From IMG/VR virus record IMGVR_UViG_3300045988_080644: a stretch of DNA of 64,000 bases, one strand, 5' to 3'. The translations under genes were made by a program, and so were the position numbers. Source of the DNA: a virus. The notes beneath the pieces were generated by a model that saw only the letters and a list, made by a program, of their open reading frames with translations, was not told the DNA's origin and ran no database searches. This document shows positions 1 to 42,187 of this stretch, piece after piece; the stretch's first letter is position 1, and every line of letters starts with the position of its first letter.

Positions 1-1
1 T

Positions 2-3000
2 AAGAATTTTAATTTAGATACTTGGAAGAATAACATGGTACTTGCTGCAAATAGGGCAGGTATTAGTGGATGGAATAATGGATATTTCAACATTGGTTCT
101 CAAAGTACTATACCTACAGATGATAAAAAGCCTGAGGCTTTTGATATAAATAATGATTAGGCAGTTATTGATAAATATAAATTAGCAGACTAGATTGCTG
201 CACATCCTGAGTAGAGAGAGCATCTTCTTGATTTAGCTAGAAGACAATATAATCAGGAATCTTAGAATATAACTGATGAGTACAATGCAGCTATTAAATA
301 GGAATAGGAAATTGCTAATAATAAGATATGGCAGTAGTATTTAGCTAATGAAGGTAAGGGTTATGCTAATGTAAGTAAAAGAAACTTTGGTACTGAAGTC
401 TTTGGTAATGGTTGGCAGAACGGAAATACTGATTTTGAGTATACTAGTGGAACTAGTCAAGAAGCAATGAGACGTTTATAGAATGCTTTTAAAACTGGAA
501 ATAGAAAAGGAGATTTTCTTAGAACAGCTATTAATATGACAGTTAATGGAGGTAAATAGAAGATTTCTAATCTAGGTGAAGCACTTGCTTATTACAAACC
601 ATTACTTGATAAAACACAAGGTGGTTGGGATTAGTTTGAAAAAGTATAGGATGCTGCAGGTAATGAGATATATAAATTAAAAGGTTCCGAAAATGCAAAG
701 GGGCAACCTCTTTATATATGGTTTAAAAACGGAAAAGCACATGCTTATAGAGACGATCCATATTCTGTAAGAAAAGCTTAGGTTATCTCAAGAGCTTAGT
801 TAGGTATGAAATTACAAACTAAAGCTGAAAAAGAGGCTGCAAAAGAAAAGGAAAATAAAAAGACTCTTAGTAATCCAAATACACCGGAAGATAAAAAGAG
901 ACAAATAGCAAGTTAGAGAAAACCTGGAGATACTGAATTTACTGCTACTGATATAGCTAGAATATCTGCAGCTGGAATGGATGTAGCTTCTGCTTTATCG
1001 GTGTTTATTCCAGTATATGGTACTGCTGCAAGCGCAGGCACAGGTTTAATTTCTTCTTTAACTAATTTTGGTGCAGATATGTTTGATAAGTCTGTATCAG
1101 CAGGAGATATGTGGAAAAATCTTGGGACTAATATTGCTATGGATGCCGTGGGATTGGTTCCAGGTTTTGGAACTGCTGGAAAAGCAGGTAAAATAACTAA
1201 AACTTTAATTAAATATGTACCTAAGATAGTAACTGCCCTATCTGCAGCTAATGCTTTATCTCCTGAATCTAGAGCATCTTGGGCTAAATTAGCTAGTAAT
1301 GAATCTCTTACAGTTAAAGATTGGCAAAATATTGCAGCAGGTTGTTCTGCTTTAGCAGGAGTTTCTAGAGGTGCAGTTGGACATTTTAATGCTCACACGA
1401 TGGCTAAGGGTACTAAAACTAAGGATTTTAATATAACTGCTTCTGATGGCAAATAGTATAAGGTAATTGCAGAGTAGTTAGAAACTTTAAAGAAACAAAA
1501 ATCATTAGAAGATATAAATAAAGAATTTAAGAAGTTGTATCCTGATGCTGAATTAAGTAGTTTCTTTAGAAATGGTAAATGGTAGTAGTTAAGACATTTA
1601 TACTTTAATAATCCACAAGTTAAATCAGTTTATGATTTTAGTCGATTAAATAATTAGGGAACATTTAGTAACTCTAATATATGGAAAATAGCTAGAGAAA
1701 ATAACTTACGTGGCATTAGTTTAGATGTAAAAAATCCGTATAAGAATTCCTTACTTAAGCAACCTACACCTAGTAAACCTTCTAAAAAGAAATATGAGAG
1801 ACCTAGAGCAACTGCAAAATCTAAATAGTAGGTAACTAATTCACCGCTAAATAATAGTCCTGAACGATATAATTATGTTCGTAGGAGTGTTCAATCTAAT
1901 ACTAGTGACGAAGTAAAAACATGGAGAGATATATTTACTAAGAATCATTTTTATTTTAAAGAGGGTGGTTCTGTTTAGAAATTAGCTAATGGTAATAGTA
2001 TAAATGGTAATCCTGCTAAATAGAATAGTGTAGGATATACTAATGATTATAATTGGAATACTGATGTGTTTTCTAAAAATTTAGACCATATACTTGGTAG
2101 TCTTAAATAGTATAAAGACGGTTATGCTAATTGGTTAAATACTATGTAGGACTTACACTATAACGATTATACTAATGCTTCTAAATAGGATTATTTAAAT
2201 ACTAATGCATATAATAATGCAACTGTTGGTTAGTATTAGGATAAGTATAAAGCTGGATATGAAGACGAATGGAACGTAAGTCCTGAAGGAAATGATCCTG
2301 ATGGTTTAGGATACAATACTCTTGGAATTAAGTCAGCTCAAGATTCTGGAAAATTCGGTATAGTGTCGGGAAATGCTAACTCAGGTGATTGGTTAGGTAA
2401 TGGTAATATGTATAAAACAGATAATTCATTTGGAGGAATTACCGATGCTAGAAGACTTTTAGGTCGTGAAGGTGATTTTAATGATGAATAGCTAAAACAA
2501 TACTAGCAAAAGTTCAAAGAATAGGGATATGATTTTTATCTAGACCCAAATACTAAATATTATAAATTAAAACCTTACACTGACCCTTCAAAGACAACTG
2601 TAGCAGACTAGGATAAACCTAAATAGCCTAATAACTTTAGTTTAAAAGATGCTATAAATAAGATGGATGTTACTGATAAATGGGGTATTCCTAGAGCTAT
2701 GTATGCTGACATAACTAATAGAAAGGTTACAGATATGTTAAAGAAGTAGCCTATATTATATGGTCCACAAGAAGACCATCGTTATGTTTAGTCTGATTTA
2801 GATGCAGAAATGAATGGTCAATAGGCTGCAGCTTAGTTAGCCAGAACAGCCAGTCATCCTATTACATCTGATGGAAATCTACAATCTATGCTTTAGTTAG
2901 AAGCAACTTCTAAAGGTAATGATGCTATTATTGCAGGACGTCAATAGAGTAATTAGAGATTAAGAGAAATGTAGGAATAGGCTTGGTAGCAAGAAGTAGC

Positions 3001-3691
3001 TAATCATACGAGTAGATATAATACAGCTATGAAAAATAGAGAATCTCTCTATAATACTGCTAATGAAAATAAAGCTTTAGAAGCAGCGTATCTTAATCAG
3101 AAATTTACTGTATGGGATGCTTTGGCTTAGGAGAAAGAATTTAAGGATAAATCTGATTACGAGCAAATGAGAGCAAGAGCAGATTAGTTTGCACAAGGAG
3201 ATATAAATAATGCTATTAAATATGGTCTTTCTAATTATGTAGATAAATATGGTTTAACTCCTGAAGATGTTTCTTTATGGGATAAGGTATATACTGATGG
3301 TACAGTTAAATTGAGCGATATTTAGAAAGATCCTATTAAATTAAGATAGTGGAATAAGGTATTATCAGCTACTAGATAGATTCAATAGGATCTATTAGGA
3401 GAATATTACGGTATCCCTAAATCTAAGTATTGGACTATCAGACAATCTACTCCTTCATATAGTTACAGTGATAAAGTTAAAGAAGCTAAAAAAGGTGCTA
3501 AGTTAAATTTACGTAAGGTAAGAGAAGCAGCAAAAGGAGAAAAACTTGCAACAGCACAGTTAAAGGCTTAGACTGCAGATGCTGATAGATTCTATAAAAC
3601 TACTAAAGACCATATAGATAGAATGTATGCTGCTATAAGTAGAACTATGAATTATAGCAGTAATAAGAAAAAACGTAAAAAGAAATCCTAA
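2..3691 (+). CDS. Large virion-associated protein, 5'-partial (about 1229 codons visible), readable only with TAG as sense; contains a Gly/Ala-rich hydrophobic segment
   Basis: Frame 2 is open from the window edge to TAA 3689-3691 with no TAA/TGA. I count 14 in-frame TAG in the first 325 codons. Track ORF 977..1456 is only the longest TAG-free stretch (VYGTAASAGTGLISS...GLVPGFGTAGKAGK). Confidence 0.8.
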
Positions 3692-4938
3692 TGCCAGGCT
3701 AGCAAGATACAGTACATTCTTACAGACCTACTTTACCAATTACTTATTAGTATCATTTAAAACCTGGAGAATCTTTTTATAAAGATAGAAACGGAAAAGT
3801 TACTATTATCCGCTCTAGAAACGAACAAGTTAGCAAAGATACTAGAAATAATTGGCAAAAGAAATAGGACAGTAAGAATGCTCCAAATATGAGAAAATAG
3901 AAGTAGATGACCTAGGCAGAACACAAAACTGCTTAGGTTGCTTCTAATATTTTAGATAGAGTAAGACCTTCTAAATTGGTAACCGCAGTTGTTAGAGGTT
4001 AGAAACCTATGGACTATATAGATAATGGAAATAAGGGCACTGGTAATGAAGTTTTAAACACAGGGTTTGACATACTTAGTACTTTTGGAACAAATGCACT
4101 GTTTAATATGTCAAAGTTTCCAAAGTTAAATCAAATAAATTTGCTTACTAAGGCAACAGAAGATTCCTCTGATTTGGGATTATTTAACTAGGGAAGACTT
4201 GCCCTAATGCGTAGATATAGACAAAATCCTATTTGGGAAAATAATGCAAGAGCCGCAGGATTAACTGATTAGGAAATAGAAACTTTCAGGAACTATGCAA
4301 ATGGTCTATTATCTACTAAACAATCCTCTGAGCCAAGGGTGCCAAGTTTATAGGTTTTATAGGATACTAATTCATATAGTAGTTATAGTAATATTGCAAG
4401 AAATCCTGATGGCTCTATTAAAAGAGAACTTGTTTTAGGAACCGGTCCAAATTCTCCTAAATATACTGGAGTACATGAAGGTGGTCATATGAGTACCCTG
4501 AATTATAATCCTGAAAATGAGAGAGTTGCATTCAAGTAGTTAATGTCTAATAAAGAAGCTAAAACTGCAATAGATAAGTTAATGCAAAATGCAAATAATC
4601 TTGCCAATTAGTTAGAAATTGATCCTCAGAAAATAGTCAATGTAAGAAGGATATTAATAAAAAGAGGTATGACACCAGAACAAGCTGACTAGACTATACT
4701 AAAACAAATAAAATATTTGAAAGAGGGTTAGGAAACTAGGTCTAGAGGCTTGGCTGCTTAGGAGTGGATGTAGGATAATCATAGTGTAGAAGTTCCATAG
4801 ACTGTAGATAATGGCGTCAATTTTTTCACTGATAAATCTTTAAGAAACGTATGGAGAGGAATAGCATCAACAATTCCAATAACATAGGGTTATTCACAAA
4901 TGATGTAGAACAATACCTAGGAAAAGTAGACAAAATAA
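3691..4938 (+). CDS. Hypothetical virion-module protein (415 aa with TAG=Gln) carrying an HExxH motif (HEGGH)
   Basis: ATG 3691 overlaps the upstream stop (TAATG). Frame 1 is open to TAA 4936-4938 with many in-frame TAG. HEGGH is encoded at 4474-4488. Track ORF 4009..4191 is a fragment of it. Confidence 0.7.
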
Positions 4939-5138
4939 TTTTTACACAAGTAGATTGTTTATATGGTTTACTAGATTCTAATTTTAAAATGAAAACTCTA
5001 ACTGTAACCAAAAATATAGACAAAATCCTAGAACAATGTACTAATTTTCCAGGTTCTACTAATTATATAAACGCTGATTTATACAAAGATAATAGATTAA
5101 TAGGAAATATAATAATTGATAAATTACCAGAAATATGA
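4851..5138 (+). CDS. Hypothetical small protein (95 aa; alternative internal start ATG near 4987)
   Basis: Standard-code ORF with no TAG. Its TGA overlaps the next gene's ATG (ATGA at 5135-5138), suggesting coupling. Its 5' 88 nt overlap the previous gene, so the true start is uncertain. Confidence 0.3.
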   Translation: MERNSINNSNNIGLFTNDVEQYLGKVDKIIFTQVDCLYGLLDSNFKMKTLTVTKNIDKILEQCTNFPGSTNYINADLYKDNRLIGNIIIDKLPEI

Positions 5139-7006
5139 TATTTAAGTTTCAATAGGGGGGAACTACTCCTCCCTTTGTTGCTTATTAGCCAGTTATAGTG
5201 TCTGATAAGCGAACTTCAGCTATTCCAGAAGAAGCCGTAGCTGCTAAAGTAGCTAGTGATGCTGATAAGGGTAAATTAACTAGCAAAGATTTATATACTA
5301 TGCTTAAAGAAAAGCTTAAAGGTTTACCTAGTGACGTAGATGTAGCTATGTGGAAACTTCAATCTGTTGAAGAGTCCCTCAATTTAGATTTTTTTCATGA
5401 TTTTACATCTAATGTAGAAAATAGGTATTTAAATGCTTTACAAACTATGAATCAACTTTCATTTAGTAGAGAATAGTATGATAAGGCTTTAGATAATGTA
5501 AAATCTAATGGAGGACTTAATGAAGCGGCTATAGATTAGTATGGTCAAGTATATATGACTAACGGTAAAGACTATAAGTTAATGTCTCCTGAAAAAGCTA
5601 AATAGTCCGGATGGAAACAAATGACTAATTAGGATTTACTCTATTTAAGAGCTAATGACCCTAGTTTGTCGGGAAAAGATGAGATTTTAAACATAGTTAA
5701 TAATGGTATAGGAATAGATAAGGTAACAGAATATATTCAAAAATGTATTCAAGGATTAGGAGCTTCTAAATCTGAAGAAAATCTATATGCTAATGTTAAT
5801 GCAGGAACTATATTAAAGGGCTTAAATGATTTTAAATAGGCGGTAGCTTAGTCTGGAAATTATGATGCCACTGTTCAAGATCTATACAGTGGTAAATTAA
5901 TGACTAAAGATTCTGCAGAATAGGCTCAATAGGCATTAACTTACATATATAGAAGTTTGCCTAATAATATGAAATCCCTTTTAAAAACAAGAACAAAAGG
6001 GGGTACAGATGATGAAGCTTTAGTTATGATAGGACAATTAATCAGTTCTAAGACTTCTCCTGAAAAATCATTTGAACTTAAATTAGAAGATACTGCTTTA
6101 GACCATTAGGAAAAATCAGGTAAAGGAGATAAAGATCCTCATTCTATAGAGGGTTTATCTATGAGTCCAGTAGATATGTTACAAGCAGGTTATGGTTAGA
6201 AGAATGATTTTACTATTTAGACAGCTGCAGGTGCTTCTAATGGTATATAGATTCCTACAGTACAAATGCCTATAACTAAGAAGGGCGAGGGTATTGGCAT
6301 GGCATCATTAAGTGATGTAGCATCCAGCGATTATGCAGGTTATCTAGATTTTAGTAATGCTTTTATGGGGGATGTTTAGATACCACAAGCAGGAATGTAG
6401 AATATAGCTATAGATGGTACTGCTTTATATACAGCTTATTTACCTTTAGACATGTAGTATTTTAATGACACAGGTTAGAAAAGACCTGATATAGCTATGT
6501 TAGGTAGATATAAATAGGCACAGAATGAAATAAGACAATCAGGAACTAAAGATCCAAGATAGATTAATGCCATCTATAAAAATCATAATTTACCAGTAAT
6601 GTACAGTCCTAATGGAGATATTTTAACTAACTATATCAAGTTTGGTATAGTAAATGGAACCGCTTTAGATAATGCCTTTGGTGATGAAGCTAAAGTAGCT
6701 GATTATTTATCAGAAACTACTGATAAAAATACAATAGCTAATACTCTTAATATTTTAAATAAGGGTAGGGGTGAAAAAAATAAGGTAGAATATGATGAAA
6801 AAAGTTGGTGGGATTCTATATCTCCTGTATTTAACGATTATACTCATGTCTATAAAGGAACTATATTTATGCCTATTAATGATGATTACTTTACTTATTC
6901 GGCAGCAGCAGGTTCTAAACCAACAACAGCTTAGGCAGAAATGATTGAAGCTAGATAGTAGGCTGCTAATAAAACTCGTAATTATGTAAATCCAGGACAA
7001 CTTTAA
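5135..7006 (+). CDS. Hypothetical virion-module protein (623 aa with TAG=Gln)
   Basis: ATG 5135. Frame 2 is open to TAA 7004-7006 with no TAA/TGA and numerous in-frame TAG. Track ORFs 5198..5476 and 6599..6934 are fragments in the same frame. Confidence 0.75.
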
Positions 7007-10000
7007 TGAAAGAAAATGATATTATATTAAATATGTTAGCTAACCCTAAATTTACTCTTGAAGATTTTCAAGCTGTAGGTTTAAATAGTGATAACACTGG
7101 GTTACAATCAGAAGATAAATATTTACAAAGTGATAAGATTAAGTCTGTTAGTGCCTTTTAGGATTCTAATGGGCAGTTTGATAAAAATAAATTTCATAAC
7201 TTTTACTAGAGTGCAGGATAGTTTTATAATTAGATGTCTAATGATGATTATGAGAAAGCTATTTTAGAACAAGCACAGTATAGTAAAGATAATATATGGG
7301 TAAATCCTAAGAAAAGAACTGTAGATTATAAACCAACTTTAGTTAAAAGAGCAAATCCAACTTTAGTAACTAATAGTTTGGAATAGATGGGTCAGATGGG
7401 AAAAAGGACATTATCTACTTCTGAAATAGCTTAGACACAAGCTGTAGTAAATCCTATTACTGGTGAGAAATCTGCTAGCCCTAATGATTCTTTCTTTTCT
7501 AATCTATTTAATACTTTAGTACTCGCTTCTTATGATAATGATGTAGTAGATCCAAAGACAGGAGAAGTATTACATAAGAAAGGTGACTTAAAATATAATG
7601 AGGATGGTTTACCTTATTATGAGACTTTATCAGGACGTGATGTACATGATAAATAGGTTCTTAATAAGATGAACACTCTTACCACTGATGGTTCTGTATG
7701 GAATAAATTTGACTTTTTTGATTCTGATGATTTAGATTAGAAGGGAATTGGCTCATCTTTATTAAAGAATGCTGCATTAGTGGGAAGTATGTTTATTCCT
7801 TATGTGGGTCCAGTAATTACTGGATTAAGTGTAGCTACTTAGACAGCAGGATTACTAGCCACATTAGGTAAACTTGTTGCAGGAAATGATAATCCTACTT
7901 TAAACAATATATAGGGATGGGCTAAGTCTGTTAATAGACAATCTGCTACAGAATATGCTTAGCAACATACTTGGTGTGCTGAGAACTTTATTAATATGAT
8001 TGGTGATACCATAGGATAGTTAGCAGAATAGCGATGGATATTTAAAGCAGCTCCTGTATTATTTGAAGGAAAGGATGCTTGGAAAGTAATGTCTAAAGAA
8101 GGCTATGATGCTTTAAAGAAATCAAAGCTTGCAGAGTTACAAAAAACATCAAGTTTAACTACTGACAAATTATTGTAGGATGCAGTAAGTGAAAAGAATG
8201 TACCCTTATTACAATAGTACATGACTGAACTTAATGCTATTAATGAAACTAAAGCTGCTAAATATGTTGATGATTTAGTTAGAAAAGCTAACAATATAGG
8301 CAGTCCTCTTTCTAAAGCTTACATGATAGGTATTACTGTATAGGATACTTATGGTAATGCAAAAGCTGCAGGAGCTTCAGACTTAGAGGCGGCTTTATTG
8401 ACCCTTGGTTATGCTGGAGGTGAAGCTTGGATTCTTAATACTGGTTTAGGAGAATGGATATTACCTGAATTACATATTGACAAGTTTAAAAATAAAGCTA
8501 TAGCTGAAGCTTTAGTTAAACCAGTTAATGATGCTAAAGAAAGATTAGAATAGACTGGAGACAAGCAAGGATTTGTAAAAGAATTACTCAAGATAGGTAG
8601 AAATGTAGCTACTAACGTATATGCAGAAAAAGCTATGGCTAAGAAATCTGCTGAAGTTATAGGAGCACATGCATTAGGTGAAGCATTTGAAGAAACTTCA
8701 GAAGAGTTATTAGCAGATGCTTCTAAAGCGATACTTAATATAACTAGATGGTTAAGAGGAAAAGATGCTCTTAATTTCTGGGATGGAGATAATGCTTTAG
8801 ATAGATATACTATGTCTGCATTAGGAGGTTTACTTGGTGGAGGGATAACTTCTGCTGCAACTAATTTTAGTTAGGTAAGAAGCTTAGCTGGAATGGATAA
8901 CTCTGCAGCTATGTAGCAACTCTTATATATGGCTAATAATAATTAGTTAGGTGATTTCTTGAAACAAGTAGATAAAATGACACTTGGAGACAAGAATAAA
9001 TCTGCTACTAAAACTATATATGATTCAGAACAAGGAGTAATATTTGCAGAAGGAACTAAAGATGATAATCAAGACCTTGCTGCTAAACAAGCTATTCGTA
9101 ATTAGGTTAAATTTATTGACAATATATTAACTACTAATGGTGCTAAGATAAGTACTGACTCATTACTTAGTAAATTAGCTATGGAGGATTAGTAGGATGT
9201 TCTTAGGAATCTTAAAATAGGTAATTTAAAAAATACCAATGTTATAGGTACATATGCTTAGGACTACTTGAATTTACAAGCAGATTTAATAACAGCCTCA
9301 GCTTAGTTAAAAGCTATTGATGATGAAATAGGTGATGTAAAAAGTGCCGCAACACCAGAACAATAGAAAGCAAGAACAGATAAAGCTGCTGAAATTGACG
9401 GCATTAGAGGTAGATTACAGGAATATCTTAATGGCACCATCTCTCCTGATTTTATTAGAGATGCTGTATTTGAGATAAATCCTCTGATTAATGACGGTTT
9501 TGTTATTACTTCATTAGAACAATATACAAAAGCTAAAGTAGGAAAATTACCTAATTAGCTATCTGATACTGAGCTTACAAAACTAACTGAAGAGTTTAAA
9601 AACTACATGAACAGTGATGGTAAAGAGTATACACATACTGCTGCTGCAGCTTACTAGAATATGATGGAATTGGGTTCTCCTATAGTGCAGCAGTATTAGG
9701 AAATAATTAAATAGGCTAATGTTAATAATAATGCTCAATTTATATAGGATTTTAACTAGTTTATCACTAACTATTTAATTAAGTTGGATAGTATTGATAC
9801 TACTGACTAGGAGGCTTATCAGACTAAAGCTTAGTTATTAAATGATTCTCTAGCTTACGGAGCACTTAGATAGATGGCACAACCTTATCTAAGTGAGGAT
9901 TAGAGAAATCGTCTATAGAGTATTGCTGATAGTACAGAGACTGATCCAAATGTTATAGCGCAATTAAATCAAGAAGCTAATAATATTCTTATGGAAACTA

Positions 10001-13000
10001 TCTCAACTAATGTTGATAACCTAGTTAAACCAGTACTATAGTAGGGATTCATACATCCTGAAGCTAGAAAAGCATTACTCTAGGGATTGTCTAAGTTAAA
10101 GGATTTAATTGCAACCAAAGCAGATAATGACTTTATGGAGGTTTACCCAGGACATCCAGATTATGAGGAAGCAAAAAAACGTCGTAAAGAGTCTGTAGAA
10201 AATATTCATCAAATTGATGATTTATAGAAAAAAATTGAGAAACTGCCAACCACACCTGCTTTAGAGTTTATTGATAAATTTAAAATAGGGGCAACCAATT
10301 CTTAGTTAAAGTTTTCAGACCATTGGTAGCAGACTATGGATTTATTAGATAACAATAAGGATGATATGTCTGAATTTGGAACTGATGAAGTATGGGAAGC
10401 TAATAATCAAGAGGCGCTTAGACTAGCTAAAGCCTTTAGGTCAGTACTTAATGGTATGAAAGTTGATAATGCAGATATAAATAACCCAACAGGTTATTCT
10501 AGAATGCTTAATTTAGTATATTAGAAATCTGCACAGAAAAATTATGTACCTTTAGCAGAAATAAGTACTTAGGAAGCTAATATGATGCTAGAAGATGTCA
10601 GCAAAATTATAGCTAGACTAGAATTTGCTGATACCTTAGCTAAAATGAATAGGGGTTAGAAGCTTAAAGAATAGAACAAAGTAGCTGCTAGAAAAAATCA
10701 ATTATTATATAATGGTACAAAAAGACTTATTGACACTTTATCAGACTCTGATTGGAAAGATACTAGTATAGCTGATTTAAAAAATACTTTTAATAATATT
10801 ACTACAGAAGTTAAAGATGCTTTAGAAGGCGAGGGAGTTAAATAGAGTAAAGAAACTAGAGCTGCAGTAGAAAAATATATGATGCAGTTAGATAATGCTA
10901 TATATGATTTCTTTCAAGCTAATAAGGATTCTAAAGGGGAATTAAGCGTTGAGAAAATAGGAAAGTTATTAAAGAAATTTGCAGGCAATGCAGGATTCTT
11001 TTAGAAAACTAATAACATACTTAATGAATCTACTAAGTCTCTAAGTGATAATTCTTATATTTGGTATTTAGCATCTAGAGCAGCAGTTAGAGCATCTGAT
11101 TTTTATGGTTCCTATAAGAAGGCAGTAAATGACAAAGTTGCTCCTATTGCTAGTTAGGAACTTGCAACTTATTTAGGAGTAGCAGCTATAGCTAATATGA
11201 ATACTCTTAACAAGTTTGTAGATGCATATAGAAATACTGTTGTTTAGGAATTTAATAATTTATCTGAAAAAGAGAGAACTGACTTATTAAACCAGTTTGA
11301 TAATAGTGGTGAGGCATATTCTAAGGATTTACTTAAGTACTTCGGGGCACATGATGTTCTTCCTCAATATAAGAATATGATATTTATAGAAGGTATTGCT
11401 GGAAGTGGTAAAAGTAAAGCAGTATTTAGAAATGTAATTAATACTATAAATCATATTAATCCAGAATACTTAAAAAATGCTTATTATGTACATGAGACTA
11501 GTGATTCTGCATAGAAAGCGGCTGAAGACCTAGAATTACAAGGATAGACTTTTGGACGAGTTGATTTTTTAAAACATTTATCTTCTGAATGGAAAAATAT
11601 TAGAGATAATAGTAAAGACAGAAAGAATTACTTATATAAAGATTCATATAAATTTGATCCATTTACAGGTAAATTAGAGAATACCTGGAAATTAAATAAA
11701 ATAGCTGATGCTCCTAAGGTAATTTTTATAGATGAGATTTCTCACTATAATTAGTAGGAAGTCAGTATGATAGAATAGTGGGCAAAGGAACATGGAACTA
11801 TTGTACTTACTGCTGGTGACTTTGATTAGGATACATCTATTGCTTTTATAGATGATGTTAAATATAAGGGAAATCCTGTAAGTGTAACCTTAAATAGAAA
11901 TAATTTTATAAGAAGTCCTAAGTTAGGGGTATCTTTACGTACTTTAAATAAATAGCTTACCAATTGTACTAAAATGATGTAGTTAGCTATTTAGAATCTA
12001 AATGATGGTAAAGATGTAGATTTAAATTTCACTTATCTAGATAACGATCCAGAGCACTTAGGTCTGTTTGGTGTAAAAATAGCTAAGCCAGTTAATGTCT
12101 TAAAAGGTTTAAGCAAAGAGGAACTTGATAGAATTGTTCCTACTATAGATTTGATGGTATCTACTTCAGGTGATGAGAAAATAGGATATATTTATCATGA
12201 TACTAATACTGAATTATATAAGTTATTAACTACTAAATATAAGGATAAAATAATACCATATAAAGATTCTGATGCTTAGGGTCTGGAAGGTAAATATTAT
12301 ATAGTAGAGAATGATATTCATTCTAATGTACCTGATTCTGTCTATTTAAGATCTTTGTATACAGGTATAACAAGAGCTTCACAGGGAGTTTTAGCCATAA
12401 CACCAACTACTACTAAGGGTATTAAAACTATAGGGACATCCTAGGATAAGAGATTTTAGTTAGAGACCATAGGTGCTGAAGCTATTAAACATGCTTCCAA
12501 AGAAAGATTAGAATAGTTAGAAGATATGGTTGATGATAATAATGCCATAACTAAATTAGAAGCACCTACTAATACACCTACTCCTACTAAGCCCCAAGTT
12601 TCAGGTGGTTTACTTCCAATTTTAGCACCTGCAAGTGTTCCTCCAGCTAATACTGCAACTAGTTAGGCTGATGCTAATATAGAAGTTGAGAATTTTAAAA
12701 AGCTTATATATAATCTTGATGGCACTACAAATTCAATAGCTAAGAAATTAGATCAGGAATTTGATATAATAAGTGTTGAAGCTAAAGAGGATAATGGTAA
12801 TTGGATTCCTACTGTTAAGTTAAAGAATGGGGATGATGAGTTTGGTGTTCCTTTAGTAGATTTCAATAAAGAATATACTTTATAGAAGAAGGATGATAAA
12901 ACAACTGTTCCTCTTTACACAGTTGGACAAACATTTTTATTGCAAACAGGTCCTACAGACACTTAGATAACTATTGATGAAGTCTTATCTGGAGAACCAC

Positions 13001-16000: not shown

Positions 16001-16251
16001 GAGACAAGGTTAAAGAAGAAGCTTGGGAAAAAGTGATTTCTATAGTAGAATCAATAACGTCTTCATCTACCCCTACTATATCATTAGAAAATGAAGATAC
16101 TGTTATTTAGAATGGTAAAAGATATACAATAATTGATAAAGAAAACTTAATTGGAGAAGATGAGGTTACTAAAGAATAGGTAACTTTAACTACAGATAAT
16201 TTAATTAAAGAGGAAACTTAGTGTATTCCTGTTAAATTTAATATGATTTAA
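7006..16251 (+). CDS. Giant multidomain protein (3081 aa with TAG=Gln) with hydrophobic Gly-rich segments and an embedded SF1 (RecD/Pif1-like) helicase/ATPase domain
   Basis: ATG 7006 (TAATG overlap). Frame 1 is open for 9246 nt to TAA 16249-16251. Walker A GIAGSGKSKAV (~11392-11421), Walker B VIFIDEISH, motif III GDFDQ (Q=TAG 11827-11829), YTGITRASQGV (~12355-12390). Track ORFs 8635.., 10336.., 13129.., 15511.. are all in this frame. Confidence 0.85.
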
Positions 16252-16252
16252 A

Positions 16253-22200: not shown

Positions 22201-25200
22201 AATTTTCTTAACTGAAACTCCTATGTATAAAGAGTTCTTTTAGAAGTATGCATTAAAATTCTTAAATAGAGAAATGCAACGACAGTTGACCGCTTTAAAT
22301 CCTGAAAATACAGAGCCTTTAAATGTATTAATTAATAATAAAGTAGTTACTGTATAGCCTTCTACTATTGATATAACTAGTTATGGAACAGTAATACCTA
22401 AGACAGCTGCTTCCTCTTTTGGTCTTAATTAGTATGACTAGGTTAGTGATATTGTTAACAATCCTGATTTCTTCTTAGATAGATTAGCTAAGAGACTTAA
22501 TACTAAAGTTTAGGATTATTATAAGGATGGATAGTTAGTATATAATTACCACTTGGAGCTAAAAAGAAATGATGGTAATCATGTTTATATAAGAAGAGGG
22601 ATTGATAATTCTGACTTCGCCAATGAAATTTAGTGGTTTAGGTATGTTGATTCTGATGGACATGTATTTAGAGTAAACAGTGATGGAAATATTATGCATC
22701 CAATGTATAGTGAGAATGATAAAATATATACTGACTATGATGGAAATGAAATAATAGTTACTGAAGCTAAAGATACTTGGAAAGATTCTAAAGGCAATGA
22801 AGTAAAGAATCCTGATATAAAGAAAATTCGAGGCATCACCATTGATTAGAAGACTGGAGAAGAAATCCATTTAGATTCTCCATTTACCTTTTACTTAGAT
22901 AACCTTAATTATAACTTTGTAAATTTAAATGCAAATTGCTCAGAAGCTGAACTATTAAATTTATTAGATGCAGCCAGAAGTAGCAAATCTAAAAAGGCTA
23001 ATAATTTTGTAAAGAGACTTGCTAAAATAGGTAATTATGATAAATAGGTGGACTATTTAGATAAACTTACTAAGTATGAAGATTTAATAAAAGGAGATAC
23101 TAAAAATCCAGCATATTTAGCCTTACAAAAGGAATCTAGATAGATATGGACTTCTTTTATGAAATATCTTGAAAATGTAGCAGCACGTATCCCTGCTTAG
23201 TCTTAGTAGTCTTTCATGGCTCAAAGAGTAGCTATGTTTGAGAATACAGATACAAATAATGCTTATGTAAGTAAATTCTAGTTCTTCTTACAGGGAAGTG
23301 ACTTGGATATTGATGCGGTATCTATACAAACATTTGATATAAATAGCAACGGTATTTATGAAACTTATTCTCCGTATGCTAATCTGGATTCACCAGCACT
23401 TCTTAAAGTTTCTGAAAAATACTTACCGTTCCCAACTGGAGATAGGATAAAAGTTGAAGAAATTCATGATCCAACTATAACTACTATGCACTAGTTAATA
23501 GCTAAATAGCATTATGATGGTAAAAGATTATTTGGATTAGCTAATAAACTTAATTAGTAGGATGCTTTATTCTTAATAAACTATACTAGAAATAAGGATG
23601 TAATCGTAGAGGTAAATACTAACAGTGAATAGAATATAAAAGATTTAGCTGATATTCTTGAGTCTATTAATTCAGAGGATTGGTATTCTTACGAAGATGA
23701 TATATCTAATACTAGAGCCTTAACAACTTTATTATTTCCAGATAATGAAATGGTATTGGATGTAGATTTATATGATAAAATAGAAAATGGTATAATTGAG
23801 GCTATAGATAAACATAATACTTATTTAAAGAATAATTCTAAAGCTAAGAACGATAGAATATTAAAGAATTTTGCTGTAACTTCACTATTAAATATTATTA
23901 AAAATCCAGTTAATCTTAGAGAGGCTTAGTCTTCTGTAGATGTTATGACATCAACTGCTAAGAACTTAACTAAGGCTTCTCCTAAAAATGCAGTACAAAA
24001 AACCTTTACTCCAGGTAATGTATTTAATAAAATCTAGAGTATCAATGAGAATATGGTTGGTAAAGATGGTATTGCTATCTGTGCGACAGGTCTTAAATCT
24101 TTCTTTGCATTAACTCATATGTATAATACAGTATTAAATGATGAAAACACTAGTAATTAGGAAAAAGAAGCTTTAATGTGTAAGGTAACAATTGGAGGTA
24201 AAACATATAGAGGACTCGCTAACGTAAATGCTAATTAGGAGTTAATAGAAAGTTTAGCAGATGCCGAGAATGGTAATTTTACTACTTTACAGAATTACTT
24301 ATTAGCTCAAGAATGGGAATCTGATGCTGCTAATGAAGCTTCTGCTTTTCTGTCTCTTTCAACTGATAATGCTAAGGAGTTAGCTTTAGCTAAATTAAAT
24401 GCAGGTACTCAGACTTTGGGTATGTATTTATATGGGTTATCTCTTGGAGTTCCAGTAGACACTTTGTTTAAAATAATGACTTCTCCATTTGCTTTTAGAT
24501 TAGTAGAATTAGCAAAAGGTGATACATTTAGTGGTAATAGTGGTTGTGGAACTATAATTGGTACTCTAGACTACTTACATAAAGACCCACTAGAATAGCT
24601 TTCTAGATTTAATACATTTGATTTATCTACATATAACGAAGGTAAACCAAAAGATTAGAAAATATTAGGTCCAGCTGATTTTGCTTGGTAGTTATTGTAG
24701 AATAGTATAGCAGATGATTATAATGAAAAATTACCACTTCTTAGATAGTTAGCTTATAAAGGTAATGCTATTTAGTTAATTGAAGATTTAAGGTCTAAAG
24801 TTAATTAGATTAGTAGTGTTATCTAGACAAAAGATGAATTTAATCTCTATTCAACCTTATATAATCAAGCACTAGACTTTATGGAATAGTATATTGCTGA
24901 TGTCTAGCTAGAGTTAGATAGTGGAAGTTACGATACTGTATACGGAAAATCCATAATAGCTACAGACTTAGAAACTCTTGCTCTTGGTGCTGATGAATAT
25001 AAAGAAATAGGTAAAATTCTTAGACTTAATCAAGAAGTAAAGACTAATGCTTTAGATTTACAAAACTAGGTAGCTAATATTGAAGAAGTTATAACTAGAA
25101 GACTCAGACAATTAGCTAGAGTTGAAAATAGGGGAAGCTACTATAGTCATGGTGCCACAAAAGATGAGTTAAAAAATCCTGATAAATATAAGATTGATTT

Positions 25201-26635
25201 AGAAAAGTTTTTATATGATGAAGTATACTAGTAGGAAAAAATAGCGTAGTATGATAGAATTAAACAATCTTATAATGTTTTACGTGTTCTTACTACAGAT
25301 CCTTAGTATAAAGGTTATATGGAAACCTTATATATGGCTCATCAAGGTCTGTTAAATAAGTAGTTAAAGTATAGATTTACAGTAGGTAAAATTGCAGATT
25401 TTATTTAGAAAAATAAAGTTACTGGTAATTTATAGTAGTAGGTACTTAAAAATGGTAACAATTATGTTGACTATAAACTAAGACAAAATTGGATGCGAGA
25501 TAGTAAAATACAGATTACTATTCCTGGCAGTACCGATAAAATGAAAACTTATGCGTTTATAGGAACCCCAAATAGTTATAGTTAGTTATACTTTGATAAA
25601 ACTATACAACTGGGCACTGATATGGGAGATGCTAATTTTAAATTATGGATGGAGCAAACTCTTATTCCTAGACTTAAAGCGGACCCAACATTAAAAGATA
25701 ATATATTTATATAGCATTTAAGTCCTATAGTTAACTCAAGAACTAATTTGGGTATGACTGCGGTTTATTATGGATTAAATGGAATAAACATGTTGCCTTA
25801 GTCTGACGCTGAAAGAGAAATGTTTGATATACATAAAGACGCTTTTAATAAATTAGCAACCTATGACTTGATTAGGGACGCTAAAGGTCATACTTTTGCC
25901 ATAAAAGACTTATTTTATCTATATTCTTTAATATGTAATAACGGTAAATTTGGTCCTACTTCTCTACATAAAATATTTGAGGATTATCTAGATTCAGGTC
26001 TAGCCTAGAGTTATAAACACTTTATAGCAGAAAAAGATAGAGACTTAGATTTCTACCAGGATTTAGTAAAGACATGTACAGATGAATGGCTTGCACCTAT
26101 GAGTTCTCCTTATGTTGGAGGTTCTAAAGTACTCAAATATAAGGATTAGAACAATGAATAGATTCTACTTTATAAAAAGAAGGAAAAGAAGTCAAAAGGT
26201 GGATATGACTATGATGTCGAGTAGGATATGGATGACATCTTTATGAATGATATGGGATTTGATCCAGAAGGTGGAAAAGACCCTATGGCAGAAATCAACA
26301 ACTATGTTAAATAGGAATCTAGTGCCCTAGCTAAAAGAGACTATAGTTTCTTCTCAAATCCTGAAGTTAAATATAATACATCAGGTTTTCAAGTATTATC
26401 AACTAAATCAGAACTAATTAATTAGCATCCTATAACCTACGAAGTTAGAGATGGTAAACCTGTATTAGTAAATATAGGGGGTGATGGGGAGATTGCAAAA
26501 AAGTTTATGAAATTAATGAAAGATCGTAAGGGAATATTACCTACTAAGTAGATTCTTGGAACAGATGGATTTACTGCAGTAATTAATGAAGAATAGATTG
26601 AATCAGAATTAAATAGTATAATAAATTGTGGATAA
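16253..26635 (+). CDS. Giant protein (3460 aa with TAG=Gln) containing a two-barrel RNA polymerase-type DxDxD catalytic motif; crAss-like virion-packaged RNAP candidate
   Basis: ATG 16253, two nt after the upstream TAA. Frame 2 is open for 10383 nt to TAA 26633-26635. ARIPAQSQQSF...GSDLDIDAVS has DLDID at 23300-23314. An in-frame triple TAG lies at 25433-25441. Track ORFs 17936.., 19103.., 20225.., 21449.., 23303.., 24416.., 25820.. share the frame. Confidence 0.8.
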
Positions 26636-27683
26636 TTGTTTAATTAAAGATTTAGAATATCGGACTAAGCTATCTTAGTCTGGTATTCCTGAATCTATAT
26701 TTTATCCATTTTGCAATGGATTTATGAATAAGTATGGGAGATTACCTAATCTAGATGAAATTCCAAATGTTGATTCTTCTCAACATATAATTAATAAACT
26801 GCATCTAGATAGTAATAGCTCAACATCTATAGATAATATCATGTCTTCTACTAATACATCAAGTATTGAAGAAGCTAATGTTAGTTTAAATGATACCTAT
26901 AAAGATAAAGATATAAATATAATTCCTTTATATAAAGAAGCTTTAGTTGACATAAAAGATAGACCTTCCGAATATAAAACAATAGAATAGGAAAAACATA
27001 AAGTAGATAGAAATCCTAATATGCAGGGAGTATTTAATTAGTTATTTAATAAGTTAGAGAAATAGTATGGAGTACAATTACATACTATTTCAGATAAAGA
27101 ACTGGCTAGTGATGAATGGTAGGGAATACCTGAAATTTAGACAGCTAATGCTTTTATTTATAATGGAGATGTATATATAAATACAGACCATGCAAAAGCC
27201 GATGCTCCTATACATGAAATGACTCATATGTTATTAGGTTCTATTAGATTTAAAAATCCTGATCTTTATTATGGAATTGTACAACAAGCCTAGGATTTTC
27301 TAACATTTAATTAGTTTATAGAACAAAACCCAAATAGAGCTATAAATGATAATATGGAAGAATTATTTGTTACAGAAATGTCTAAATATCTAGCAGGGGA
27401 ATCTAGCATTATTGAATAGTTAGATGAAACCGTTATTAATGAGTTACATTATAACATGAAGAGACTATTAGATACTGCACTTATGGGTTAGTATAGTGTA
27501 AAAAGTATTCCTGATTCTAAGTTATATAGAATGTCTTTAGCTGATTTAGTAGAAACTGTAAATTCCCAGATGTTAGAAACAAGTTTTTATGGAAGCCTAG
27601 ATGACGCTGCTTTGCATAGAGTATTAGCTAATACTAAGTCAGATTTAATGAAAAAAGGTGATTTAAGAGAAGATTGTGTATGA
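26628..27683 (+). CDS. Putative Zn-metallopeptidase-like protein (HEMTH motif), TAG-recoded; start uncertain (GTG 26628 or ATG 26724)
   Basis: Frame 0 is open from 26625 to TGA 27681-27683, with in-frame TAGs after 26988. PIHEMTHMLLG has HEMTH at 27213-27227. Its stop overlaps the next ATG (ATGA). Confidence 0.7.
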
Positions 27684-30600
27684 AATGTATTTATAGTTAT
27701 AAAGGAAAACAGTTTTAGTCCATACAATAGTTAGATGATTTTCTATTAGAAAAACAAATATATGAAAGTAAATATGGAGATTTAGTATTCTCTATGACTG
27801 AAAAATAGTTGTCTGCTTAGAATAGAATTGATAGCATCAATAAAGAAGCAGAGGAACTAAATAAAAAATATGCTGAAGCTAAGAAAAACGCGTCATTTAT
27901 AGACTCAGAAGAAATATTAAAAATGACTCGTCCTTATGTAGGTGTAAGTGAGTTTTTAATGGATTAGAGAAATGATGAAGGAGAACTTTGGGTGCCTACA
28001 TTTACTACTGAGTATTGGGCTAAACAATACTTAAATTGGAGTTAGGGAATTTACTCAAAGGACGAAAAAGATGCATTTTTTGATGGTGATGATTCTAAAG
28101 TATAGCCTGTAGAATTAGGAAATCAGGGGGATTGGCGTAAGGCGGATGGCTCTCTAAAGGATGATTTTGGAACTATTGAATAGAATAACTTCCGTAAAAT
28201 AATGGAAGATAAGTGGAAACACTAGGCTAAGTATGGTGATGATATTCATGCCATTATGCAGAGTTATTTTGCTAGAATAGGCGAAGATTCTGATGGAAAT
28301 CCTAAGTATCGATATGAATTATGGGAAGGAGATCAAGGAGCTATGCATTTAGCTAAGAGTATTAAATATATGCGTAATAAAGGAATTATTACTGATGAAA
28401 TGACTGATGCTAAAATTAATAGTATATTAGAAATAGCTAGAAATTTAAGAGATTAGTTATAGAGTTAGTATGGCAAAAAATGTATATTTTATCCTGAAAT
28501 TACTGTTAGTGCCAAATTGAATCATGAATATGAAGGTAGAGACGATTTAAGTGTATTAGGTCGTCTAGACTTATTAGTTATTGATGAAGATGGTATTCCT
28601 CATATTATGGATTACAAAACTTCTCCTAAAAATTACGATGACTTTGTCGAAGCTAAGAAACTCACATTTACTTACTAGTTAAGTACCTATGAAAGAATGC
28701 TTAGGAGACATGGTTTTAATACTACAGCCACAAGCTTAAATATTATACCACTTAAACTAAATAACTTTAGAAAAGAAAATGGTAAATGGACTTACGATGA
28801 TGTAGTACCTGGTGGTAATTTACTAGAATCAATAACTGATAGAGCCAATAAAGATTACATAGCTAATAATCTTGATGAATACATAGAAGCTCCATTATTA
28901 TTAGATGGGGATTCTAGTAAGATTACAGAGAATGTAACTGATTTAATGAAAACTTGTTTTCCTGAACATGGTAATGTAGCCACTGATGAATAGATAAAAA
29001 AGATGATTGATGGCTAGGGAGGTTTCCATGAAAATAAGGAAGCGGGTTCTTTGGAGTTTAAGCCCAAGGGATGGACTAAGACTATATCGGTAAAGTAGAA
29101 GGAAGGGGCAGAAGCTGAATTATTTAATAAGGTTAAGAAATTCTTTACAGGCTAGAGAGAACGTAGTTTAAAGAGAACTTAGGAAATTAAGAGAGCACTT
29201 AAACAAGCACAAGCTGAAGACACTAGATAGATTTAGTTACCTAATTCTATGAGTGATTGGACTAAAACAAGGCTATCTAAATATTGTAGTAAATCTTGGG
29301 AAGTAATGGAAGGTCATGCACAAGATGTTGCTGAGCAATTTGGTATGATATTTTTATATAACAAAGCTAATGATTTAGTAGAGGTAGTTAAAATTAGTTC
29401 TGCAGATTTATCTTTTTAGCATTCTTGGGGAAAAGGTAGATAGAATATTATTGGGGCAAAGGAAGCTGATTTGGGAGAAAATTCCAAGTCAGACAGTTTG
29501 ATTATTAAAGCTACTAATGGTAACATAGAGCTTATGGAAGCCATGGCAGTTTTAAATAATATTCAGTTTAATAAGTTTATTTAGTTAGGAAACATAAGTG
29601 TTCTTAATCCGGTATTTGGTTAGGGAGCTGAAACTAATTCTAATAAAGAGCTGCTTTATAACTGGAGAAAACTTAGAAAAACCTTTAACATGGATGGGGA
29701 AGATTAGTTTAAATAGGATGGTACTATTAAATTATTGTCTTTAGCTGAAAGAGCCTATCTGGAGTATGCTGATATAATGGATAGAGTTAATGACAGGTGG
29801 CAAGCTCAAGAATTTAGTAAGTTTAAACCTGCTATGACTGAGTTACAAAGTTCCTTACAACCTAATAATGTAGAAGAAAGTCTTGAAGCTCTTAATTAGC
29901 TTAAAACCAAATTGGAGAAAGACTTTGGAATGAATAAGGATATTTTAACCAGGGGAGAAAATAAGGGTAAAAGTATATATTCTGAAGTATAGAATTATGA
30001 CTAGCAATATACTAAGTAGATGTACCAAATAACTCTTAGAGCCATTGCTGAACTTAGCGGTTTTGATATTAGACAGGAAACAAAAGCACACAGTTCTTTC
30101 TTAGATAGTTTAAATATCTTAGAAAATGGTATGTCTGGAAATATGATAGATAACCCAGGTAACTTTGGTAATAGACTTCTTAATTAGGTAACTTAGTTAG
30201 CTCTTGATGGTTATTAGAATACTCGAGATATGTCAATTAAAAGACTTAATGCACTATCTGAAAAAGTACGAGAGCTAAAAAGAGGTGAAAACTATGGGGT
30301 TATTAGTGAGTATGGATTTGGTAATTAGGCTTCTCTCTATAATGGTATGACTTATTATGATACTGATGGTGACTTTAAATTTAAAAATCCTTGGAAAGAT
30401 AATTCCCTACCTGAACATAAAAAAGAGTTTTTAAAATGGGCATTAACCGAAATAGCTAAAAATAAACATCCTGATTGGACTCCCGAAGTTATTAAAGATA
30501 AAATAGAAGCAAATGATCCAGATTTCTTTTAGGTTCCTTTAATAAGGGCTGATGCCGCATCTAAAATTAATGCAGACGGATGGTTAGGTTGGTTAAAAAG

Positions 30601-32524
30601 TAAAATGAGACCTTTAATTAGCAAAGATAATGGAGCAACTTTTAAAGAGAGAATTCAAAATACTTTAAAAGATATACAATCTAAATATTTATCTGATGAA
30701 ATAGATTAGTAGCAAAGTATTGACGGTGAAGTATTTAAAGTAATAAATACTATGGATTAGGGAAGTGGTCCTGGCAGATTAGACTTAATTAAACATCTAC
30801 AAGGAAAATACGGATCTAATTGTTTTGAAACGGATATAGAAAAAATATTAGGTGCTCATATGATGGCATATGCTACTCAACAAGCCATGGAAGATAGAAT
30901 GCCTTTAATTAAAGCAGCTTATATATCCTTAGCAGTAATGGGTAATAACTAGGGGGTAGACTATTCTTCTGATGAGAAATATATTAAAGAATATGTTCAA
31001 AATAAAATAAATAAATTAGCAATAGATAATCCTTAGTTAAGACATTTAAGGAGTGCCACTGGAATGTTACAAAAAAGTGCTTCTTGGATGGCATTAGCTT
31101 TTTCACCTTTACAAATGTCTTATTAGAGTCTGGAAGGTGTTTGGAAGGCTGCTAAATTAGTTATAACTAAACCAGATGGTAAAGAAACATTTAGTTTTTC
31201 TAATATGCGTAAGGCTATGGGTATTGTATATAAAGAATTGTTTAATTATAGTGAAACAAATTCTGTAATAGAGGGTTGTAACGCTCTTTATGGTATAAAC
31301 GATATGGATGCTGCCTCATTTGCTCAAAACAATAGTACTAATAAGCATGGTCTGTTTAATTTCTTTGACAGAATTGCATATTATTGGTCTTCTCGTCCCG
31401 ATTTCTATAATAGAATGTCAATATTCACAGCATAGATGCTTGAAGATGGTAGTTATGAAGCTCATTCAGTAGATGCCAATGGTAACTTAATATACAATAT
31501 TAAAAAGGATAAGAGATTTGAAGCATTATTTAATAAACCAAAGGGTTCTCCTGAATATAATAAAGCAAAAGCCTTATTCTTAGCCACTGCTTAGTAGTTA
31601 GTGAGGGAAAACGCTAGAAATGCCGATGGTTCATTATACACCATAGATTTAGATAATCCAAATTTACCTAAAGCCTACTCTAATAAAGAGTCTGAATCTA
31701 TGAAAGCTATTGGGGATACCATGTATGGATATTACGATAGTTCTAAGAAATCATTATGGCAATCTACATTCTTAGGAGGCCTTATGATGCAAATGCAAAC
31801 ATATTGGTCTGGTAAAAAGAATTAGTATCTTGCTCCTGGAGGTATTAAAGCACAGGGTAAATGGGTCTAGATGGTAAGTCCTAATGGTAAAAAGTGCTAT
31901 TATTCTAAAAATGAAAATGGAGATATTGATAACTCCTCAATGCCTATAGAAGAGGGAGATCCTAGAGCTAGTGAAGTACCCTTTATGCAATGGAAGGGTA
32001 GATTTGAAGAAGGCGCTTTTATAACCTTATATGATGTACTTAAAAGAACTATAGGACATAAGGGAAATCTTAAAGCTGCTTGGAAAGAGAAGTTAGATGG
32101 AACTGACGAAGACTTATAGAAACTTTATAAGTAGAACATGAAGTTGATAGTTAGTGACTTACTCGGTATGTTACTTATTGGTTCTTTACTAGGCGGATTA
32201 TTAGAAGATTTAGCTGATGAAGAAATTAAAAAGGCTAAAAAATCTGCACAGATTGGAGATGCTATGGCTGCAACAGCCTTAAGTCTAATAGCTAAGACTG
32301 TAAGAAATTCAGCTCTAGATTTTAACATGATAGACTCTTTGTTTGGCTTCGTAGGGGATTGGAATCCATTCTCTATTAGTTATGCAACTAATTAGCTAAG
32401 TAATGGTTGGAGTCTTATAACTGGAGATAAAAATTGGGAATAGACTCTATGCAGTGCCTTCTCTGCAGCACGCTAGATGAGACCAATACTTAATTGCATT
32501 AATTAGTCTTTACAAGAGGATTAA
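27680..32524 (+). CDS. Large protein (1614 aa with TAG=Gln) with an N-terminal PD-(D/E)xK (RecB/Cas4-like) nuclease domain and a C-terminal hydrophobic segment
   Basis: ATG 27680. Frame 2 is open to TAA 32522-32524. GRLDLLVIDEDGIPHIMDYKTS (DYK at 28610-28618) is followed by TYQLSTY, where Q is TAG 28676-28678. Track ORFs 28256.., 28697.., 30347.., 31205.., 31601.., 31871.., 32138.. share the frame. Confidence 0.85.
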
Positions 32525-32534
32525 ATACACTAAT

Positions 32535-32720
32535 ATGAAACCTAGAGACAATTTATCTACTAAATATCCTAGATGTCATTATAATAAATTAGGTAAAACT
32601 AAAATGACATTCGATACTACAGATTTAGCTGAGAAATATCTCAAAAAGATGCATTTAGATACTTATACTATTTATCAATGTACTTATTGTAATAAGTATC
32701 ATATATCACACATAAATTAA
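32535..32720 (+). CDS. Small Cys/His-rich protein (61 aa), last gene of the rightward block
   Basis: Standard-code ORF with a C..H...CxxC..H pattern (RCHY...CTYCNKYH). It lies immediately upstream of the convergence stem-loops. Confidence 0.5.
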   Translation: MKPRDNLSTKYPRCHYNKLGKTKMTFDTTDLAEKYLKKMHLDTYTIYQCTYCNKYHISHIN

Positions 32721-32725
32721 AAAAA

Positions 32726-32760
32726 TAGGGGCAAGCTAGCATTTGCTAACTCACCCCCTA
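32726..32760. terminator. GC-rich stem-loop at the convergence point of the two modules
   Basis: TAGGGG (32726-32731) pairs with CCCCTA (32755-32760), with an inner TAGCA/TGCTA stem. An A-run on the plus-strand 5' side becomes a T-run after the stem on the minus strand. Confidence 0.5.
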
Positions 32761-32769
32761 TAAAGAAAA

Positions 32770-32809
32770 AAGGGCAAGCCAATGGATTTTACTCCACTGA
32801 CCTGCCCTT
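32770..32809 (-). terminator. Rho-independent-type terminator for the leftward module
   Basis: AAGGGCA (32770-32776) pairs with TGCCCTT (32803-32809). On the minus strand the stem is followed by TTTTTTCTTT. Confidence 0.55.
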
Positions 32810-42174: not shown

Positions 42175-42187
42175 AATTATTTAATTA

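Follow-up and report, generated by a model that had tools for sequence, protein, structure and literature searches.

How can full-length proteins be made from seven consecutive genes that are all interrupted by in-frame TAG codons? The question is raised by a 64,000-nt stretch of viral DNA from IMG/VR (record IMGVR_UViG_3300045988_080644), called the window here, whose left half carries on the + strand a late block of seven such frames (2-32524, g1 to g7). An original prediction had proposed that TAG is read as glutamine (Gln; translation table 15) in this block and that the genes of the opposite strand conform to the standard code. Our analysis makes it highly probable that the window comes from a crAss-like phage of the Zeta group, in which TAG stands for Gln in the late virion block, the early block is neutral with respect to the code, and late translation would be enabled by a transfer RNA (tRNA) with a CUA anticodon, tRNA(CUA).

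Code-15 recoding of late and lysis genes in gut phages was reportedly described by Ivanova in 2014. For the Zeta group, with the proposed name 'Echekviridae' and genomes of 145-192 kb, the literature (Yutin et al. 2021, PMC7886860; PMC12386605) describes phages in which TAG or TGA is reassigned mainly in late genes and the RNA polymerase, a giant protein of high divergence, carries a DxDxD motif. Group I introns and homing endonucleases are numerous, there is polA/polB variation, the early region includes a tRNA block, suppressor tRNA(CUA) genes occur, and the lineages differ in their code. Suppressors are reported in only ~40% of TAG-recoded phages, with a mismatch between suppressor and recoding within Zeta (PMC7886860; Borges et al. 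2021/22 preprint), and recoding has been proposed to block premature late-gene expression (Borges et al. 2021/22 preprint). Late TAG-to-Gln recoding, including that of Zeta phages, the suppressor tRNAs, their imperfect match and the timing idea are already published. The value of the present case is confirmatory, not one of discovery, and the residual interest lies in the TAG load, the graded use of the codon, the problem posed by release factor 1 (RF1) and a set of accessory translation-related genes.

TAG-rich frames and the opposite strand

The seven frames comprise 10,773 codons with 370 in-frame TAG, and re-translation found no internal TAA or TGA, as had been predicted. The first of them, g1 (2-3691), is the C-terminal 1229 codons of a ~1462-aa protein that is seen at full length in the sibling loci L009 and L055; it contains 50 TAG and probably encodes a virion protein of the cargo or ejection type. 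It is followed by g2 (3691-4938, 415 aa, 23 TAG or 5.5 per 100 codons, the first at codon 4), g3 (5135-7006, 623 aa, 23 TAG), g4 (7006-16251, 3081 aa, 107 TAG), g5 (16253-26635, 3460 aa, 105 TAG), g6 (26628-27683, 351 aa, 10 TAG) and g7 (27680-32524, 1614 aa, 52 TAG). All lengths are divisible by 3, and every gene ends in TAA or TGA, namely TGA in g6 and TAA in the other six. The count of 14 TAG against 10 CAA and CAG in the first 325 codons, given with the prediction, is exact.

Such openness was held not to arise by chance, and the statistics agree. From the base composition (31% G+C), ~709 TAA and TGA would be expected in 10,773 codons, and log10 P for finding none is ca -319. In the other two frames of this DNA, TAA and TGA occur by the hundreds. 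When TAG is taken as a sense codon, the content of open reading frames (ORFs) of at least 100 aa rises from 754 to 11,602 aa on the + strand, as compared to only 8,550 to 8,974 aa on the minus strand. In each late gene the first TAG comes at codon 4 to 53, and the longest stretch without one is 179 codons; TAG is thus so early and so frequent that no full-length late products can be made under the standard code. In public annotations of sibling contigs, full-length products of 3434-3469 aa and 1614 aa are already called.

The predicted chaining of the genes by overlaps of the TAATG or ATGA type holds in part. TAATG is found at g1/g2 and g3/g4 and ATGA at g6/g7, but g4 and g5 meet at TAAAATG without overlap, and g2 and g3 are separated by a gap of 196 nt. 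The start of g6 is uncertain, since the 351 aa are counted from GTG at 26628 whereas the gene calls in siblings take a later ATG (319 aa). In profile searches of the late translations, PHROGs gave no match for g1-g6 and Pfam none for g1; g7 has an N-terminal PD-(D/E)XK nuclease domain and residues 1454-1612 of g4 give a borderline match to the P-loop family AAA_30 (26.8 bits, just below the Pfam cut-off of 27).

On the opposite strand, where about 60 intact standard-code genes had been claimed, the part of the window from 32.8 to 64 kb is covered to 93% by 56 ORFs (60 aa or longer, none overlapping) that the standard code leaves intact. They stop at TAA in 43 cases, at TGA in 11 and at TAG in 2. 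One of the two TAG codons (42630) appeared to end polA, the gene of a family-A DNA polymerase that has 728 aa in siblings without an intron; this was ruled out, as the codon sits within a group I intron (42432-42658, minus strand; Rfam RF00028, 81 bits). The sole ORF that truly ends in TAG (60980-62497, minus strand; called as 505 or 509 aa in siblings) has a back-up TAA 3 codons on, which means that the gene tolerates either code. With no in-frame TAG, TAG stops nearly absent and the exceptions explained, the early block reads alike in both codes.

Assignment of TAG to glutamine

We now turn to the residue that is inserted at TAG. In all comparisons the codon was entered as X, so that no residue was favoured in the alignments. 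Close strains, defined by at least 90% protein identity and drawn from ENA, Logan and IMG/VR assemblies that are independent of each other, gave 497 codon matches of TAG to TAG. The TAG-site differences between them are 25 CAG, 8 CAA and 6 others (TGG 2; AAA, AAG, GAG and TAT 1 each). TGG is rare although it is one transition away, and each CAA requires two changes, a pattern that fits synonymy with Gln and not mutational proximity.

More distant homologues give the same picture. Alignment with the standard-code relative MT835470 covers 103 TAG sites, where Gln is more frequent than any other residue (14.6%; background 3.4%) and as frequent as at genuine CAA/CAG sites (15.1%). Four more standard-code relatives from IMG/VR have Gln at 16% of the TAG sites versus 5% (P = 6e-8), with 17% at CAA/CAG sites. 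In relatives that are themselves recoded, the codon found most often in place of a TAG of the window is CAA or CAG, and the one found most often in place of its CAA or CAG is TAG. The assignment of TAG to Gln in the late block, in a code like table 15, is thus supported both by the strain variants, 33 out of 39 being CAG or CAA, and by homologue residue profiles equal to those of CAA/CAG sites. TAG makes up 63% of the Gln codons in the late genes.

Phage identity and nature of the late block

Proteins identical to those of the window occur on sibling contigs of 182-188 kb, and the window is probably part of a gut phage of the Zeta group of the crAss-like phages (Crassvirales) with a genome of ~180-190 kb. 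The assignment follows from the sizes of the sibling contigs, the gene content and the literature description; the Zeta-like traits are, apart from the size, the many group I introns and homing endonucleases, polA, and an early tRNA block. In size, late TAG recoding, giant DxDxD polymerase, introns and homing endonucleases, polA/polB variation, early tRNA block and neighbouring lineages with the standard code or TGA recoding, the window phage is like the published group, and nothing essential differs. The last ORF on the + strand (32535-32720, 61 aa) is free of TAG; in the index of the assembly collection, its exact protein turns up in 4,053 blocks. The phage must therefore be very prevalent in the human gut, and standard gene callers shred the virion half of its genome unless code 15 is used.

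The genes that precede g1 lie outside the window and were read from sibling contigs. Directly upstream there are a 2187-aa protein matching crAss_MUZ of Pfam (68 bits), a protein with an SLT domain and a DUF192 protein. Farther upstream, Pfam matches to CrAss_Ring_1 (36.7 bits) and Crass_capsid (41.7 bits) are found, and giant fibre proteins lie upstream as well; the capsid, ring and muzzle matches all exceed their Pfam cut-offs. Portal homologues carry precomputed PF16510 matches, of which the one examined (P0130) is labelled P22_portal and marked faint, and the putative large terminase (TerL) is a 784-aa protein, as read from position and sequence. The late gene order in siblings is then TerL, portal, fibres, capsid, ring and muzzle, followed by g1 onward. 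Judged by this order, the genes at 2-32524 close, on the downstream side, a late block that spans roughly 90 kb. The prediction that the rightward module is of virion or late nature is supported by its position directly downstream of the muzzle, ring and capsid genes, and by the virion RNA polymerase homologue that it appears to hold.

This homologue is g5, which has the DxDxD motif (GSDLDID) at codons 2350-2354 (nt 23300-23314). A structure model was made of P0007, a 35%-identical homologue matching g5 residues 641-2065, with a mean pLDDT (predicted local distance difference test) of 69.8. The sole significant match of the model in a Foldseek search of the PDB is 6vr4_A, that is, gp66 of phi14:2 (E = 3e-6, probability 1.0). 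By sequence alone the similarity is undetectable, a phmmer search of g5 against PDB sequences having given no match. A megablast search of g5 against GenBank phages gave none either. The model argues with moderate strength for g5 being a homologue of the crAss-like virion RNA polymerase. With gp66 (PDB 6VR4) it shares the fold match and the DxDxD motif, and its gene lies downstream of the muzzle gene among giant cargo-type proteins, as in the cargo/muzzle module of crAss001. However, g5 has 3460 aa as compared to the 2166 residues of the 6vr4_A chain, and the g5 product would presumably be packaged into virions as gp66 is.

The g5 ORF runs uninterrupted through DxDxD, whereas many relatives are broken exactly there. 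In MT835470 (L002) an insert of ~1 kb at 41942-43001 splits the RNA polymerase gene exactly at the motif; within the insert lie an ORF for a LAGLIDADG endonuclease and a weak match (23 bits) to a group I intron. Several database homologues likewise end at g5 residue ~2350. Inserts at the DxDxD site may explain the 'broken' RNA polymerase ORFs noted in Zeta phages by Yutin et al. (PMC7886860).

Codes differ between close relatives of the structural module. Of 61 related IMG/VR loci (L046-L106), ~42 are TAG-recoded, ~18 (L087 and L092 among them) are written in the standard code and one, L091, is TGA-recoded with 58 in-frame TGA. Three codes within one module argue that the code change is driven by the phage and not imposed by a variant-code host; the mixed-code relatives point to a phage-autonomous change.

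Decoding of TAG and proposed mechanism

The window has no tRNA gene. In three sibling lineages (L202-204, L210 and L213), the head of the late block carries a tRNA(CUA), which precedes the portal gene by 8.5-9.5 kb. It scores 52.5 bits against the Rfam tRNA model and is flanked by small TAG-free ORFs ahead of TerL. The L210 tRNA departs from the other two in the acceptor stem, where the changes are compensatory, and in the D and T arms, and has the identical anticodon arm. That the gene is kept at one position in three lineages indicates that the suppressor is a conserved feature of this phage group, and we infer its presence in the window strain. L213, a locus from a 179-kb contig, has a portal protein in common with L211, L212, L214, L215 and L216; its nucleotide identity is 93% to L207 and 87% to the fibre region through which the connection to the window lineage was made. 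In L211 and L212 the tRNA island is beyond the 10-kb range because of an extra 399-aa gene.

The early block of a sibling contig has tRNAs for Ala, Gly, Asp, Thr, Met and Tyr. A further tRNA hidden in the gaps of this block was considered and discarded, as a permissive Rfam scan found none there. A scan of the GTDB genome collection with a 304-aa protein and with the tRNA sequence gave no match. The search for tRNA(CUA), RF2-like and synthetase genes that accompanied the prediction was thus answered for the tRNA in three sibling lineages; the readable loci of the window lineage gave none, and no gene of RF2, of an RF1-related protein or of glutaminyl-tRNA synthetase (GlnRS) was seen in the loci read.

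The tRNA(CUA) has a weak 1:72 pair (U-G or U-A), G10, U35 and A73. Judged by the identity elements of the E. coli enzyme, the 1:72 pair, G10 and U35 are compatible with charging by GlnRS, whereas A73 is not the canonical discriminator base.

A mechanism can be proposed on this basis. In a Bacteroidota host with the standard code, the early genes would be translated normally after infection, having been transcribed by an injected virion RNA polymerase if the phage behaves like phi14:2 and crAss001. The phage tRNA(CUA), whose TAG-free island heads the late block, would then be expressed and presumably be charged by the host GlnRS. Only thereafter would the TAG-rich late genes give full-length proteins, including the polymerase to be packaged for the next generation, with RF1 being out-competed or neutralised. 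The timing role, the charging enzyme, the handling of RF1 and the tRNA of the window strain are inferred parts of the scheme. The timing switch would be the one hypothesized by Borges et al., and the layout of their model is present in the siblings, with the code-change tRNA in a TAG-free context upstream of recoded structural and lysis genes.

The window phage is also similar to other code-15 gut phages in that the early genes are in the standard code, the structural and lysis genes form a contiguous TAG-rich unit and, in its siblings, the suppressor lies upstream in a standard-code context. It differs from them by its much heavier TAG use, with the 63% of Gln codons given above and up to 107 TAG per ORF, by a graded TAG share, with its minimum of 0.17 in the capsid gene and its highest values in the genes for the portal, the cargo proteins and the RNA polymerase, and by the lack of an RF2 or GlnRS gene in the loci read.

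Alternative explanations

That the frames are decayed, non-functional genes or assembly artefacts might be suggested by the presence of standard-code stops and by how little PHROGs and Pfam find in g1-g6. The absence of TAA and TGA at log10 P = -319 refutes this already. In addition, broken alignments and assembly artefacts, which had been named as observations that would speak against recoding, are not what is seen: homologues align straight through the TAG sites, g7 for example with MT835470 in a single tblastn piece that covers 91% of it, and the TAG positions are kept in the 497 matches across independent assemblies. With the PD-(D/E)XK domain of g7, the borderline AAA_30 match of g4, the RNA polymerase fold of a g5 homologue and the extreme prevalence of the phage, the probability of this explanation becomes negligible. 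Another residue at TAG, for example Tyr, Lys, Glu, Trp or pyrrolysine, is very unlikely. It is true that K, S and E are frequent as well at the TAG sites of distant homologues, and that the discriminator base of tRNA(CUA) is A73, where E. coli tRNA-Gln has G73. However, close strains alternate TAG with CAG or CAA in 33 of 39 cases, where the 8 CAA need two substitutions each and TGG occurs only twice, and the residue profile at TAG sites matches that of genuine CAA/CAG sites. Inspection of the annotated loci showed no pyl genes, and the label 'Pyl' that ARAGORN gives to the tRNA is due to the CUA anticodon only. For two other crAss-like phages, Peters et al. (2022, PMC9523058) report metaproteomic confirmation of TAG = Q.

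A different option is that the window strain has no dedicated suppressor, and that a host tRNA or an unrecognised factor decodes TAG together with an inactivation of RF1. This would fit the literature figure of suppressors in only ~40% of the TAG-recoded phages and the mismatch within Zeta, and also the lack of tRNA(CUA) in the readable loci of the window lineage and in L206 and L207 within 10 kb upstream of the portal gene. On the other hand, L213, which has its portal protein in common with L211, L212 and L214 to L216 and is 93% identical to L207, has the tRNA just past the point where the loci with this portal protein end, and the same position is occupied in three lineages. We consider a strain without its own suppressor improbable. 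Several points nevertheless weigh against a Zeta phage that reads TAG as Gln with the help of tRNA(CUA). No tRNA(CUA) was found in the window or in ~155 kb of composite sibling sequence to either side (ca -58 to +101 kb relative to the window), a coverage that leaves ~25 kb of the window lineage, with the expected tRNA site, outside reach. The window is connected to the contigs with the tRNA stepwise, at 84-93% nucleotide identity per link, across a population that is mosaic. The fold match to 6vr4_A has low TM-scores (template modelling scores; 0.22/0.14) and comes from the homologue P0007, not from g5 itself. With TAG counted, the Gln content is 5.5% in the late genes, as compared to 3.0% in the early genes and 3.4% in standard-code homologues, and TAG must therefore have spread beyond ancestral Gln sites.

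TAG load and its gradation

The number of TAG codons puts a high demand on read-through. For an ORF with 105 TAG, the computed yield of full-length product is 0.5% if each codon is read through at 95%, and 35% at 99%. With 105-107 TAG per ORF, read-through must thus be ~99% or better, and RF1 would have to be disabled or lose the competition for the codon. The window offers a clean and very TAG-dense example for testing how phages switch code and overcome this factor.

TAG is not used evenly within the late block. The capsid gene and two TAG-poor neighbours use it for a fraction of 0.10-0.20 of their Gln codons, the genes of the portal, cargo and RNA polymerase proteins for ~0.6-0.7. The capsid gene has 2 TAG in 473 codons and the two neighbouring genes have 1-2 (L123 10001-11422; L107 568-5178), as compared to 3-5.5 TAG per 100 codons in the cargo genes of the window. 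The SLT-domain gene has 4.5% TAG, and a lysozyme-like gene, recognised from its sequence, ~7%. TAG density appears to be inverse to the expected copy number in the virion.

One can speculate from this that TAG acts as a graded translational attenuator with an accessory toolkit, beyond an on/off lock on late genes, an idea that we regard as tentative and on the whole doubtful. The number of TAG per ORF could then help to set the stoichiometry of the virion, being low for the high-copy capsid and high for the low-copy portal, cargo and RNA polymerase proteins. On this view, the ORFs with more than 100 TAG would point to an undiscovered route by which the host RF1 is neutralised. A transfer-messenger RNA (tmRNA), a YqeY-like protein and a pair of RNA ligase and polynucleotide kinase (PNK) could be parts of such a code-switch system.

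The phage tmRNA was seen in sibling contigs, where it lies ~+95 kb from the window start (L027 7200-7533, minus strand; L030 431-765); it scores 59.5 bits in Rfam and encodes the tag peptide GEVNNTSASYAIAA. It could relieve the stalling caused by read-through of host TAG stops. The YqeY-like gene (GatB-tail type, Pfam 37.8 bits) is at 55128-55557 on the minus strand, where it is split by a frameshift into ORFs of 55 and 90 aa; in sibling contigs it is intact with 146 aa. The protein may be relevant to the handling of tRNA-Gln. The RNA ligase and a PNK3P-type polynucleotide kinase/phosphatase, at 47504-48877 and 35561-36076 on the minus strand, resemble a tRNA-repair pair.

Further observations

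The early block at 32815-64000 on the minus strand is devoted to replication and nucleotide metabolism, with polA, a sigma-70 factor, DNA ligase, RNA ligase, NrdD/NrdG, ThyX and dUTPase. The sigma-70 family factor, with regions 2, 3 and 4, is encoded at 45159-46004 (minus strand), in a phage that also has the virion RNA polymerase homologue. Where the late and early blocks converge, two terminator-like hairpins are found on the minus strand at 32727-32809, where 0.2 would be expected. In a sibling, the early tRNA block is adjoined by the gene of a P-type cation-transporting ATPase with the motif DKTGTLT (L022 1-1834).

Outside the window, genes with 10-22 in-frame TAG also occur on the minus strand, next to the head of the late block (L207 339-2774 and L202 1779-2501). 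The idea of a strictly strand-specific recoding was rejected on account of these genes.

The loci L035-L044, which correspond to 22.5-32.5 kb of the window, contain two versions of the g5-g7 module, with either 319 + 1614 aa or 861 + 1509 aa. Both occur in contigs with the identical 61-aa ORF and near-identical early genes, and since they are merely 22-29% identical to each other, a swap of the whole module is suggested.

In various siblings, homing-endonuclease ORFs of the LAGLIDADG, HNH or DUF723 type split the genes for DNA ligase, NrdD, the portal and the putative terminase; such ORFs are located at 19513-20445 in L004/L008, 15434-16372 in L011, 2785-3429 in L201 and 7126-7983 in L211. Reverse-transcriptase genes of the RVT_1 family adjoin the giant tail-fibre gene in two loci (L202 19523-20782; L210 19883-20887), and their position beside the tail fibre suggests a diversity-generating retroelement in some lineages.

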